This document shows, piece by piece, positions 31,667 through 35,710 of a stretch of 64,000 nucleotides of DNA; the stretch's first letter is position 1; each line of letters starts with the position of its first letter. This stretch comes from Podospora anserina (lineage: Eukaryota). The notes under the pieces are model-generated. The model did not search any database. It worked only from the letters and a program-made list of their open reading frames with translations, and was not told the DNA's origin. Location: assembly GCA_017654855.1 (NCBI GenBank), contig CM030334.1, positions 1,922,001 through 1,986,000 on the forward strand, given 5' to 3'. The position numbers and the translations under genes are program-made.

Positions 31667-31820
31667 AAGTAGTGACAAGTTCAGCCAGTCGGCAGCCTTG
31701 CCGCCCCACGTGTTGGTGTCCGGCGCGGTTATGCACGGTGATCGTTGATCAACGGTGCCCCTCCCTGCCATCCAACTTCGTCGTCAGCGTCACTGTCAAC
31801 TTTGCAGATGCAACACTTTG

Positions 31821-33527
31821 ATGGATGTGACCCAGCATCAACCGGGCCGACGGCGCCATGTTTTCTATGGTTTCTGGGGTTTCTCAACACTATTTCTGGT
31901 TCTTGGACTGTCCACGGTTCTCATCATTGGGCTGCTAGTTCAACTGCTCAACCAAGATCTGATAAGCACAACCGATATGATGCACAACACGCTGTCCAGC
32001 GTGGCCAGTCTCACAGCTATATTACTTGCCAGTCTGGGCCTTTCACATGCCTCAAACGCACCAGAGTCGCTCGAAAGTGAAGACTTTGAGATCGACCTGT
32101 CTTGGTATCCCCCAAAACCATCTTCGATAACCAACCTCACCACCGTCTTCAACAGCACCGGCGTCTGGGGATTCATCTTCAACACCTCCCACACCCCAGA
32201 CTCCCAGTATGGCACCTACAACTGGTGCAACATGCCTCATGTCCGGGCAAAGGAATATCCCAGGCCACCCTCAGAATATGAACTCCTCTACGTCGAAGTA
32301 GTCAGTGACTCTCCCCCTCTTTTTGCCTGTCACCTCAGTTCTAACAGCCCCCAGATCCACCGCCACCACCTCCGCACCCCCTACTCATCCAACTCCTTCC
32401 CTGTTGAACCTCACCCCTGGAACTGCAATAACATCGCCATCTACTCTTACTCCTCCCCTCTCACCCCTGGATCACCCCCCTCCATCCCAGGATACCACTC
32501 CCCTTTCACCTCCCCCCTCAACCCCTTCCCCCCATCTCCCCTCGGTCTCCAAGGCACCTGCAACTTTCCCCAAATCACAACCCAAGGCCTCTCCGACTCT
32601 TACCAGCACGGCCTCGACCTGCTATCAGTCTACTCCCCCCTCATCTCACCAACCTCAGCCGAGTTCCGCATAACCAACAACCCCATCACCTCCCAAGTCG
32701 CCGGCGCACTGATATCCGCCCTCCTACCACCCAAAACCACCACCACCACCCCCCTCCTCATCCAAAACACAGAAATCGACTCCCTCGAGCCCAAATACCC
32801 CTGCCCCCTCTCCCACCACCTCTTTTCCCAAATCCAATCCACTCCCCAATGGAAATCCCACCTGCAGCTATCAAGTGAGATCCTCACCCAACTAGACATC
32901 ATAAGCGGCGTCCCCCCCTCCGATACCAGTTTCCACATCAGTTTCGACCACTACTTCGACAACCTCTCCTCCAAACAATGCCACTCCCGTCCCCTCCCTT
33001 GCTCAGTCCACTCCCCCCACAACAACAAATGCATCCCCCAACACCTAGCCGACACCGTCTACCGCCTAGGCCAGTGGGAGTACCACCACACCTACCGCTC
33101 CTCCAAACAATCCCTCCAAGCCTCAGTCGCAAGCTACGGGGTGTGGATCGCCGAACTATTGTCACATATCTCATCCATGACAAAAGAAGAGACAAAAGTG
33201 AGATATCGACACAACATTGCCCACGACGGGTCAATTTCCCGACTGTTGGGCGTGCTGCAAGTAGACGATATGCACTGGCCCGGGATGGGCTCCGAGATCG
33301 TCTTTGAGGTTTACAAGCAGCAGCCAAAACATTTTGTCAGGGTGTTGTACGGTGGGCAGGTGCTAAAGTCCAGTTCACCCATGCTAAAGGGAAACACCAA
33401 AGGGATGATACCACTCCAACAAATCATGGGGTATCTAGGTGGCCTCATCGGATTACGAGAAAAAGACGGGAAAATGATGCACGATATCAAGGAGATGTGC
33501 AACACCCCTATTACCTACAATAAGTGA
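31821..33527 (+). CDS. Histidine acid phosphatase family protein
   Basis: HRHHLRTP (RHxxRxP-like) and IAHDGS motifs, N-terminal hydrophobic segments, in-frame intron 32301-32354. The start could instead be 31977. Confidence 0.85.
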   Translation: MDVTQHQPGRRRHVFYGFWGFSTLFLVLGLSTVLIIGLLVQLLNQDLISTTDMMHNTLSSVASLTAILLASLGLSHASNAPESLESEDFEIDLSWYPPKPSSITNLTTVFNSTGVWGFIFNTSHTPDSQYGTYNWCNMPHVRAKEYPRPPSEYELLYVEVVSDSPPLFACHLSSNSPQIHRHHLRTPYSSNSFPVEPHPWNCNNIAIYSYSSPLTPGSPPSIPGYHSPFTSPLNPFPPSPLGLQGTCNFPQITTQGLSDSYQHGLDLLSVYSPLISPTSAEFRITNNPITSQVAGALISALLPPKTTTTTPLLIQNTEIDSLEPKYPCPLSHHLFSQIQSTPQWKSHLQLSSEILTQLDIISGVPPSDTSFHISFDHYFDNLSSKQCHSRPLPCSVHSPHNNKCIPQHLADTVYRLGQWEYHHTYRSSKQSLQASVASYGVWIAELLSHISSMTKEETKVRYRHNIAHDGSISRLLGVLQVDDMHWPGMGSEIVFEVYKQQPKHFVRVLYGGQVLKSSSPMLKGNTKGMIPLQQIMGYLGGLIGLREKDGKMMHDIKEMCNTPITYNK

Positions 33528-33546
33528 CATTAGAATTATTATATAC

Positions 33547-34982
33547 TCATAACAACCCACCCCCCCCGCCAGGAAGCAACTCAGTCAACCCATAATCCCT
33601 CTCCAAATCGACCCACCTCCCCATCCTCATCGGATCCAACTCCTTCAACTTCTTCACCCAAGATATCAGATCCTGCCTCTCATGCTCAAGAGGTTTCCTC
33701 TTCTCCAGCTGACACAACCCAAGCGTGTATTCCAACAACGCCTCATGGATCAGCTTCACATCCTCATAATCCTCTAGCAGATCCTTGATTTCCGTGATTT
33801 CTTTCAAGAGGTAGTCCACTCTCTGATCTACCGTCAAGGTCGGGACAATGGTGGGACGCCTAACTGGATTGACGAGGTTGTCGACAAGGAACTGGTGATA
33901 ATACCACAGTGACTGATCGTCGGGGCCGACATTGAGCGCTTCTCGGATTTGGGTCAATTCTGCTCATGTCAGCAACTATCCATCAGTTTCAGACAACAAA
34001 TAGCATACCGGCATCTAAAAAAGCCCTCCTCTCATCCTCCCCCGCCCCCCTCTCATCCAACAACCTCGGAATCAGCGTGCTCCTGCTATGCCAAGCCGAG
34101 AAATTACTCAAATCAGCCCGGATCATCCGGTCCGTATACGCAAACTCGCTCTCCACCAACGAATCCCCGCCCAGCTCCCTGCTCTCCAGCTGGCTGACAA
34201 CATGCCGCCTGTACCCCCACGCATGGAAATTCCTGCGGTCCATCGACAGCATCTTGCTCGCGAGTCCCAACTCGTCCTGCCAAATCTTCTTCGCCTTCTC
34301 CACCGGCAGAAGCAGGATAGACTGATCCAATGTCCAAAGCCGATACGACCAAATCCAGTAGCATTTCGGGCTCTTGAGCAAAAGCCCAAAAGTAAAAGAC
34401 AGCTCCGAGGTTATAATATCAAGATCCTTCTTCTGGGCCTCCCCATCTTCTCGCTCCGTTGGTTCTTGCGCGACAGCGGTATCATCAGACCCCTGGTCAG
34501 CTATTATACCACTCCTCCCAATCCTCCGGCAAGCTTGGCTGTGCGGGGTCCTTGTCGAATAAGAGCACGATGACTCGTCGGAACACGTTGTTGTAGTGTC
34601 TGACCGAGAAGAACTCGAGCACGCCCTCGAGCATGAGCACCCATCCGACCGTCTTGAGAATAAGCCAGAAGTTAGCGTACGCCTGCGGACGTTCCATACT
34701 GTGTAGTATTCCGGGTTGAGCTTGAGGAGGGTGGTGGTGAGGTCAAAGGTTTTGCGGCGGGAGTAATCAGAGGAGGAGACGAGCTGGCGGAGGTGGGATT
34801 CGAGGTCGCGGTACTTTTGGATGCGCTCGAGGTCCTGCTGCTTTTGGGCGGGGGTGCGGGTGCGGGTGGTGCGGGCTATGCCGTGCTGGGAGCCGCCTTG
34901 CTTTTTGTTTAGGGCTTGTTTAGTTAATTTGTCTGCTGCTGGGAAAGATGAGGGGTTTGGTGAAAGAACTTACATCGGCCAT
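33547..34982 (-). CDS. BET4: Rab geranylgeranyltransferase alpha subunit
   Basis: Exons 34982-34974, 34885-34009, 33959-33547. Motifs HGIAR, NPEYYTVWNVRR, PKCYWIWSYR, DRRNFHAWGYRR, SNFSAWHSR, PDDQSLWYYH, DPMR. Confidence 0.95.
34497..34697 (-). CDS. Candidate overlapping microprotein in an alternative frame of BET4 exon 2
   Basis: 66-codon ORF coinciding with a Ser/Cys/Thr-rich insertion in BET4, with strong C/G-ending codon use and a hydrophobic helix. Confidence 0.6.
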   Translation of the reverse strand: MERPQAYANFWLILKTVGWVLMLEGVLEFFSVRHYNNVFRRVIVLLFDKDPAQPSLPEDWEEWYNS

Positions 34983-35710
34983 GGTATGTGTAGTTGTTGC
35001 GATGATGTGTCGCGTGGAGGATTCGGGTGCGGGATCGAAATGACGTCGGGTGTGAGGCCAGGAAGGCTACAGCAGCACAGTGTGTGCATTCGTCAGCTGT
35101 TGCGGGGCTTTATCGATAAGAGATAGGGGGCTTAGCGAATCGGGGCAGCCCCCTGAAGCCCCTGAATAGCTCCTGCCTTCCATTCAACACCTTCCATGAT
35201 AGAGAGGATATGGCGGGGAAAGTGCTCAAATGCGTCGAGCACTTTCCCTCAGTAACCATAATGTGTCGTCATGAGGGTCAGGACCGAAAAGAGATGGGCA
35301 GGTGCTATCCTCCCAGTCCCACACGGGCAACAGGACTCCGATCGTCTGGATGACTTTCGTCTGCTCGGCCTCTGCATCTTCTCTCTTGATTCCTAAGACC
35401 ATCATTCCCGAATATTGCTACGCGACTACAGCATCGGCATCAGGGTACTATTATCCCGTCGGGCGTTTCACGTATGGACTTGTCACCCATCACCGGCCGA
35501 ACAGGTTTCTGATCATCCGGGCCCGCATCAAACACCGCCGTCTCGATCCATCGACGGCTTCAACTACACCAATTCTTGCTGGCCCTTACACTCGCTAGGT
35601 CTTTGAAAAATATCATTTTGTGAATCTCATTAGCATCCGCATCTTCTCCCATCGCTTCTCTCTTCCATACTCTTCTCATCTTTCAGTCTTGGTGGTGCCG
35701 CAGCTTCGCT

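Follow-up and report, generated by a model that had tools for sequence, protein, structure and literature searches.

A stretch of 64,000 nucleotides from a fungus of the Podospora anserina complex (contig CM030334.1 of assembly GCA_017654855.1, positions 1,922,001 to 1,986,000; hereafter the window, whose own coordinates are used throughout) carries on its minus strand BET4, the gene for the alpha subunit of Rab geranylgeranyltransferase (RabGGTase alpha). Comparison of this gene with its relatives indicates that part of its second exon is very probably a true dual-coding region, which specifies a loop of BET4 in one frame and an independent protein of 66 or 72 amino acids in the other. The two open reading frames (ORFs) share a strand, occupy different frames and lie on one mature mRNA, as contigs from four of four sequencing runs are continuous over 34009..34914. 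Both frames are maintained across species, with the stronger protein-level constraint on the small ORF. The comparative DNA thus gives strong support to the core of the original prediction, made from the letters of the window alone, that selection acts on the alternative frame and that one locus makes RabGGTase alpha and a small protein.

The nested frame and its host gene

The host gene is identified by four stretches of PPTA repeats (PF01239, E = 3.1e-30, 102 bits against a cut-off of 29.5) and by orthology to annotated Bet4/RabGGTase alpha proteins. Among 3059 candidates, 845 protein relatives have E <= 1e-10, and the top relative of the exon 2 product is the Rab geranylgeranyltransferase of Podospora bellae-mahoneyi, with 99% identity. 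The annotated orthologue P0003 has the N-terminus MADQGGSQHGIA. All sequence elements described in the original prediction, namely the BET4 insert, the alternative frame, exon 1 and the splice-like signals (a CAG ending at 34683, GTACGC at 34680 and an AAG ending at 34465, the last two bounding a candidate in-frame intron of 216 nucleotides), are found on the minus strand.

Within the overlap the BET4 frame reads ...YTVWNVRRRTLTSGLFSRRSDGCSCSRACSSSSRSDTTTTCSDESSCS..., and the 66-residue microprotein of the -1 frame is MERPQAYANFWLILKTVGWVLMLEGVLEFFSVRHYNNVFRRVIVLLFDKDPAQPSLPEDWEEWYNS, which opens with MERPQAYANFW and ends with EDWEEWYNS before the stop codon. Each alternative codon combines the third base of one BET4 codon with the first two bases of the next. 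The alternative ATG is formed by GTA-TGG of the BET4 YTVWN motif, and from stop to stop the frame covers 34497..34742 (81 amino acids). The length of this ORF in the window sequence alone is within chance expectation, since the GC-rich 2.8 kb around BET4 hold 52 ORFs of at least 40 amino acids, including off-frame ones of 184, 129, 119 and 101. The codon usage that had been offered as a sign of selection is correctly counted (Phe TTC 5/5, Lys AAG 2/2 and Glu GAG 5/5 in the span considered, with one further Glu, the second codon when the ORF is read from its ATG, being GAA). The argument built on it is circular, because the third position of the alternative frame is the second position of BET4 and Ser TCN codons force xTC, which makes the bias mechanical. 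What far exceeds chance, as judged from the relatives, is the cross-species conservation of the frame.

Conservation of the microprotein in filamentous fungi

DNA of relatives was represented by 80 metagenomic BET4 loci, which rank highest of the 239 relatives confirmed among 312 matched stretches. The alternative ORF was sought in them by a hallmark search and by translation of all loci whose WNxRR-to-CYWIW gap is insert-sized. Of the 80 loci, 45 carry the ORF; they yield 36 distinct peptides, two of them cut at contig ends, and the start and stop sites are homologous in all of them. Where the YTxWN-to-CYWIW spacing is short (48–74 codons), insert and ORF are both missing. Two length classes dominate: 66 amino acids in 20 distinct DNA sequences, including the window, and 72 amino acids in 11. 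Single peptides of 69, 71, 73 and 85 amino acids complete the set, and every length change is in whole codons. The 66-residue class comprises Sordariomycete-like loci and the 72-residue class Leotiomycete-like loci, labels that we infer from named protein matches: the named best relatives of the window BET4 are Sordariomycetes, and the best named matches of one 72-residue locus, L026, are Leotiomycetes (Bisporella, Botrytis, Sclerotinia, Hyaloscypha and Pseudogymnoascus).

An alignment of 32 alternative peptides, named here A2, has the consensus MERPQxLANxWLILQTxGWxxALEGVAEYFSxRHYHxLFRRxIxLxLxRDPAxPRLPDSWEEWYNS. Residues M1, E2, N9, D50, P51, P54, P57, W63 and Y64 are invariant, W60, E62 and S66 are conserved at >=90%, and the replacements elsewhere are conservative (I/L/V, D/E, R/K). 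The imprint of the microprotein extends to named genes: in 26 of 30 named BET4 proteins the BET4-frame text is compatible with the alternative C-terminus at the same offset, and these include orthologues from Podospora, Pseudoneurospora (a relative of Neurospora), Fusarium, Botrytis and Sclerotinia.

In the BET4 frame the same region is a Ser/Thr-rich stretch that is present in 20 of 20 aligned Sordariomycete orthologues, which bears out the earlier suggestion of Ser-rich inserts in other Bet4 proteins of this class. About 70 residues of the insert show hardly an indel between Sordariales, Magnaporthales, Hypocreales and Xylariales; a variable acidic stretch with many indels follows. Such rigidity is odd for a low-complexity sequence. 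In the AlphaFold2 (AF2) model of P0003, 301 of 439 residues have a predicted local distance difference test score (pLDDT) of at least 90, and the insert, residues 89–146, falls below 50. One annotated orthologue, P0081 of Thermothelomyces heterothallicus (379 amino acids), has a gene model that removes part of the Ser/Thr insert, which the 13 other aligned annotated proteins do not; the model may reflect an error of prediction or a genuine minor isoform.

Selection by reading frame

The codon-position pattern of the overlap is that of the alternative frame. Mean pairwise nucleotide identity at alternative positions 1, 2 and 3 is 0.73, 0.84 and 0.69 in the 66-residue class (n = 20) and 0.82, 0.90 and 0.71 in the 72-residue class (n = 11). 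The third position being lowest, the second positions of BET4 are the least conserved in the overlap, and its third positions are over-conserved (0.73–0.82, against 0.50–0.52 in the flanks). The downstream flank of the same loci shows the normal BET4 pattern (0.77 at position 1, 0.81–0.90 at position 2 and 0.50–0.52 at position 3), and so do the 30 codons upstream of the alternative ATG (0.68–0.85, 0.71–0.94 and 0.55–0.63).

The ratio of the proportions of nonsynonymous and synonymous differences (pN/pS), calculated by the Nei–Gojobori method with the downstream region of the same loci as control, agrees with this pattern. For the 66-residue and 72-residue classes, respectively, the overlap gives 0.53 and 0.32 in the alternative frame and 0.91 and 1.13 in the BET4 frame, and the downstream control gives 0.28 and 0.16 in the BET4 frame and 1.57 and 2.12 in the -1 frame. 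The values in the overlap, together with the positional pattern, point to purifying selection on the alternative-frame protein. Comparison of both frames, which had been proposed as a check, finds that the signal shifts to the alternative frame within the overlap only; a concentration of substitutions at BET4 third positions, which would have spoken against the idea, is not seen there, and it is the BET4 second positions that vary most.

Resampling of synonymous codons points the same way, as counts rather than formal probabilities. With BET4 residues fixed, the identity of the alternative peptides comes to 0.23–0.25 and never exceeds 0.27 in 1000 runs; the real values in the two classes are 0.64 and 0.75. 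Chance would leave the alternative frame open in 3.0 loci of the 20 and 0.26 of the 11 and preserve its ATG in about 4.6 and 3.7, respectively, whereas all loci have both. Fixing the alternative residues instead predicts an open BET4 frame in 1.8 loci of the 20 and 0.6 of the 11 (maxima 6 and 4), whereas all 20 and all 11 have it open; none has an open third frame. Both frames are thus open across species beyond chance. Within the overlap, these comparisons suggest, the small protein is the main target of selection, which on the BET4 side mostly keeps the frame open.

Start and stop context

The codon that precedes the invariant Trp of YT[VI]WN ends in A in 33 of 33 loci (ATA for 21 of 21 Ile, GTA for 9 of 9 Val, one ACA and two GCA), whereas ATA and GTA have background shares of 28% and 17% in the same genes. 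An ATG therefore arises at the Trp codon, and the suggestion that translation could begin at the ATG at 34697 fits these data. Its context has a purine at -3 in 33 of 35 loci and always a G at +4. The UGA stop is built from GCT-GAN or CTT-GAY.

A conserved N-terminal extension of the alternative ORF was considered and dropped, as the frame is closed upstream of the ATG: by a stop 15 codons upstream in the window, 18 nucleotides before the ATG in L012 and 126 nucleotides before it in L007. In the third frame a stop is provided by the ATA Ile codon of the BET4 motif HGIAR (Table 1), a stop being present at this site in 13 of 16 loci; the Ile is encoded by ATA in 12 of 13 cases. The ATA site is also found in L001, L002, L004, L006, L007, L010, L011, L014, L016, L020 and L044, and in L028 a TGA occurs at the site via GTG-ACG.

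Transcripts and splicing

Contigs of four runs from four studies were compared with 33450–35150, and only the parts that they cover were interpreted. These contigs, which drop rare variants, are spliced and are therefore derived from transcripts. Their sole joints are 33960–34008 and 34915–34973, and the insert is retained in all four runs. Two splice routes in the original prediction find no counterpart here: a joint 34974->34682, which would lead from exon 1 to the CAG at 34683, and a joint 34681->34464, which would remove the 216-nucleotide intron, are both absent.

The first intron is 59 nucleotides long in three of the four runs (the contig of the remaining run, X1, ends at 34914 without a joint). 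This splice joins GAT to CCC TAA, and the exon 1 ATG at 34982 then opens only a four-codon upstream ORF (uORF), MADP, with its TAA stop at 34911–34909. The next ATG of this form is that of the microprotein at 34697, 211 nucleotides past the uORF stop, and the BET4 frame is left without an in-frame ATG. As the 59-nucleotide acceptor is used in three runs, no AUG of the assembled transcript form can yield BET4. For the annotated start MADQGGSQHG an intron 1 of 73 nucleotides is needed, with an acceptor 14 nucleotides further on. The BET4-productive 73-nucleotide splice is presumably a minor form, and a minor isoform may account for the annotated start MADQGGSQ. The observed Podospora isoform has the short uORF that reinitiation needs, a structural precondition only. 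Candidate alternative acceptors in other loci, judged from DNA alone, would yield uORFs that end at least 175 nucleotides before the alternative ATG. A further ATG at 35089 is relevant only if transcripts begin upstream of it; one contig starts at 35072.

Predicted structure of the microprotein

AF2 applied to A2 gives a mean pLDDT of 76.5 and predicts a helix over residues 5–47, a loop and a short helix at 60–65. The best-conserved block lies at the C-terminal end (Table 1). The maximal Kyte–Doolittle hydropathy averages over 19 residues (KD19) have a mean of 1.59 (range 1.19–1.97; residues 12–30) and reach at least 1.6 in 15 of 32 peptides, and the hydrophobic segment bears conserved Glu/Asp residues. 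With a maximum near 1.6 and acidic residues conserved within the segment, the membrane association proposed earlier is only weakly indicated, and insertion of the microprotein into membranes can be called plausible. The conserved blocks E[FY]FSDRH (residues 28–34, about 34596–34616) and WEEWY (residues 60–64, about 34506–34520) may bear a loose resemblance to FFAT-like and WxxxY-type docking motifs, a reading that was considered and set aside.

Database status

In protein collections the alternative peptide occurs only as unnamed short ORF calls, in 14 clusters of which three are labelled 'hypothetical protein', and the clusters of four of its database copies, when looked up, gave no names. 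A search of a protein atlas with the microprotein gave no usable match, and searches of full-text literature, supplements excluded, turned up no account of an ORF within BET4 or of the peptide motif. Nested dual-coding genes are a known kind, and this BET4 microprotein is apparently an unannotated member. The idea that a stand-alone homologue had been inserted into BET4 was dropped, none having been found in the protein collections or in the profile search described below. Three database representatives, P0155, P0158 and P0160, are small-ORF copies that change frame midway or continue into unrelated text, which may point to decay or misassembly in some lineages.

Discussion

A model for two proteins from one mRNA

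Open frame and conserved downstream domains suggest that BET4 is read through the overlap; ribosomes translating it would pass straight across, producing a disordered Ser/Thr-rich loop. The small ORF would start at the AUG that results from an A-ending codon and the invariant Trp, and would end at UGA. Its product is predicted to form a single long helix, hydrophobic in part, with a Pro-rich linker behind it and then the conserved tail of acidic and aromatic residues (..DPxxPxxPxxWEEWYNS). Scanning ribosomes may reach the alternative AUG as the first usable one. In Podospora transcripts the BET4 AUG would become that of the four-codon uORF, 211 nucleotides upstream, a geometry that would favour reinitiation, and a less abundant 73-nucleotide splice would yield BET4. 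Translation by way of such a splice-made uORF and reinitiation is a serious candidate, though somewhat short of an even chance; the remaining probability would be shared by leaky scanning and a 5'-shortened transcript. Because selection appears to act mainly on the small protein, the BET4 frame being mostly kept open, the insert looks chiefly like a carrier of the alternative ORF.

A bolder and rather doubtful extension is a splice-controlled switch, in which two intron 1 acceptors 14 nucleotides apart would choose between the prenyltransferase subunit and a four-codon uORF leading to the nested microprotein, the WEEWYNS tail would dock on a partner in Rab prenylation or membrane traffic, and the loop would have arisen, and persist, only as carrier of the ORF. 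If it is true, BET4 would exemplify, in a cellular organism, a host protein that tolerates a disordered insert to house another gene.

Observations that weigh against these readings

Several results count against the dual-coding reading or its extension. L013 has an insert-sized gap with stops in the alternative frame (18 codons, L013:1749–1802); among loci with such a gap it is alone in lacking the ORF and in carrying the kind of stop or frame-breaking change named beforehand as a refutation. Its BET4 loop text is unrelated to that of the others, and it fits a natural loss in which constraint on the loop would act only through the alternative ORF. No insert occurs in L024, L031 and L032, which are Sordariomycete-like, and the ORF is thus not universal. 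An ATG at the Trp codon is also found in 11 of the 19 distinct loci that lack the insert, from ATA or GTA before TGG (L024, L031, L052, L053, L055, L057, L063, L065, L068, L073 and L078), and the out-of-frame ORF that follows is mostly 14–47 codons long. The ATG alone is therefore not diagnostic of the microprotein; the start may pre-date the ORF, as an ancestral seed, or reflect a separate constraint. The 75 nucleotides upstream of the alternative ATG contain no ATG in 32 loci, against seven in 21 loci without the ORF, and 150 nucleotides are ATG-free in 16 of 16 loci; the BET4 residues there permit none (0 in 2000 synonymous-resampling simulations), so this is only weak evidence.

The metagenomic loci share ancestry, and the resampling counts are for this reason not formal probabilities; the flanks of the same loci are the fairer control and carry the selection argument. 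A profile search of 1.84 billion representatives returned 23 matches, all to the same ORF of 63–100 amino acids, and no larger family. Pfam-A gave nothing above gathering threshold, the sole match being NEDD4_Bsd2 with 15.9 bits against a cut-off of 24.7. The isoform-switch model is incomplete on two further counts: the 15 sequencing runs that contain 83–91% of the sampled words, the four compared here among them, are labelled RNA only by guess, and the 73-nucleotide joint of intron 1 occurs in no contig of the four runs, from which rare variants drop out.

Alternative explanations

That the alternative ORF is a by-product of selection on a Ser/Thr loop of BET4, for instance on phosphorylation or glycosylation sites, with the -1 frame incidentally open and hydrophobic, has in its favour that the composition forces xTC, xAC and xTG codons, which makes the codon bias and part of the openness mechanical, that the insert text is recognizably conserved in the BET4 frame of all 20 orthologues, and that BET4 pN/pS in the overlap lies below the 1.57 and 2.12 of a purely wrong frame and thus betrays some constraint on the BET4 side. 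Such a loop would not leave BET4 second positions the least conserved and third positions over-conserved, nor would BET4 residues by themselves give the observed identity of the alternative peptides or retain their ATG, and L013, where the ORF is lost, has an unrelated loop. The codon-position, resampling and pN/pS results together appear largely to refute this explanation already, and we regard it as very improbable. Equally improbable is a nucleotide-level element, such as an RNA structure, a regulator of BET4 splicing or translation or an embedded non-coding RNA, with no second protein. Conservation at synonymous sites cannot by itself separate RNA elements from overlapping ORFs, and the region lies near an alternatively used acceptor; yet the conservation is three-periodic in the alternative frame (position 2 > 1 > 3), start and stop are homologous with length changes in whole codons, the replacements are conservative and the alternative pN/pS is 0.32–0.53, and the Rfam matches at E <=1 are two chance-level ones (E of 0.1 and 0.98, far under gathering scores).

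The alternative frame might instead be translated as the C-terminus of a fusion, through -1 ribosomal frameshifting or an acceptor that places the exon 1 AUG in this frame. As MERPQ overlaps the conserved WNVRR of BET4, the first residues cannot show where translation starts, and in L006, L011 and L044 a candidate acceptor would create an ORF of 141–142 codons from exon 1 to the alternative stop. Closure of the frame upstream in the window, L012 and L007, the BET4-type conservation upstream of the ATG and the near-constant initiation context argue for initiation at the alternative AUG, and no classical slippery heptamer was seen by eye, short of a formal scan; a fusion is accordingly a slender prospect, marginally better than the preceding two. 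Least probable of all are the splice routes proposed at the outset, from exon 1 to the CAG at 34683 (giving MADAYANFW...) or through the 216-nucleotide intron 34680..34465. Their signals are in the sequence, and one of 14 annotated orthologues examined, P0081, has its insert partly spliced out in its gene model. Against them stand the contigs, which run through the region in all four runs but could miss rare isoforms, and the BET4 frame, which is open through the insert in all loci, a needless feature for an intron that is always removed.

Relation to known dual-coding genes

Two unrelated proteins encoded by the same exon in two frames are familiar from the mammalian CDKN2A INK4a/ARF and GNAS XLalphas/ALEX genes, whose proteins are long, and in INK4a/ARF an upstream exon or splice choice sets the frame. 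Unlike in these genes, the alternative ORF of BET4 is wholly nested, and across it the host frame is predicted to form a disordered loop, not a folded domain. POLGARF, the overlapping product of human POLG, reportedly starts at a non-AUG codon and is much longer than 66–72 amino acids. In mammalian POLG neither the AUG built on a Trp codon nor the small product of 66–72 amino acids is found, and the BET4 host is fungal. The BET4 uORF, moreover, would be created by choice of a 3' splice site, unlike that of POLG. The comparison implies no family relationship. What POLG/POLGARF reportedly shares with BET4 is an alternative-frame ORF nested in the 5' coding part of a housekeeping enzyme gene, and access to it by a short uORF with leaky scanning or reinitiation, the route proposed here for BET4 (PMC10742948).

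TP53BP1 is likewise a dual-coding gene, whose small overlapping ORF is reportedly reached by promoter switching and reinitiation (PMC10193022). It is metazoan and unrelated in sequence; the BET4 contigs cannot show transcript starts and so do not bear on promoter use. With overlapping genes of viruses and the dual-coding genes of a mammalian survey the BET4 overlap shares joint constraint on two frames, one member without homologues outside its clade and one frame that is typically disordered or of low complexity (PMC3494269, PMC8227390, PMC1868773). Unlike the viral cases, BET4 is a nuclear gene of a cellular eukaryote, and the frame that may be the younger, that of the microprotein, is the more constrained, the host frame being the low-complexity one.

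Among cellular eukaryotes, nested dual-coding regions with deep conservation are rare, and the best-studied cases are mostly mammalian. The BET4 overlap would add an apparently unannotated microprotein, backed by selection, to model and economically important fungi of two large filamentous classes. It would also account for an oddity of BET4, a low-complexity loop nearly free of indels across orders, and it would mean that dN/dS values and 'disordered linker' readings of this protein are confounded by the overlap. Podospora and Neurospora genetics would offer a tractable system in which one mRNA is divided between an essential enzyme and a small protein.

Features of the locus

Table 1. Features of BET4 and the nested ORF in window coordinates
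Feature	Position	Strand	Basis
BET4 exon 1 (ATG GCC GAT)	34974..34982	-	donor GT at 34973; joint at 34974 in contigs of 3/4 runs
Intron 1 as in RNA contigs, 59 nucleotides, GT..AG	34915..34973	-	runs X3, X6, X9 (3/4)
14 nucleotides between observed acceptor (ending 34915) and annotated-start acceptor (AAG ending 34901)	34901..34914	-	sequence
Third-frame TAG from ATA Ile codon of HGIAR	34876..34878	-	ends third-frame translation well upstream of alternative ATG
BET4 exon 2, annotated phase, with PPTA repeats and overlap	34009..34900	-	PF01239; 99% Podospora match
Nested alternative ORF, 66 codons, -1 frame relative to BET4	34497..34697	-	ATG 34697-34695, TGA 34499-34497
Microprotein codons 10-30, hydrophobic core of predicted long helix (residues 5-47)	34608..34670	-	AF2; KD19
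BET4-frame Ser/Thr/Cys-rich insert (P0003 residues 89-146), predicted disordered loop between two helices	34472..34645	-	AF2 of P0003
Microprotein codons 50-66, Pro-rich linker and acidic/aromatic C-terminal tail DPAQPSLPEDWEEWYNS, best-conserved block	34500..34550	-	A2
Intron 2, 49 nucleotides, GT..AG	33960..34008	-	joint in 4/4 runs
BET4 exon 3 to stop codon	33547..33959	-	aligns with C-terminal half of orthologues; RNA contigs

Downstream of BET4, a convergent gene on the plus strand (31749–33527) matches the histidine-phosphatase family, branch 2 (PF00328, E = 1.4e-05). Its open frame stops about 20 nucleotides from the BET4 stop codon, and the 3' ends of the two genes therefore probably abut or overlap.

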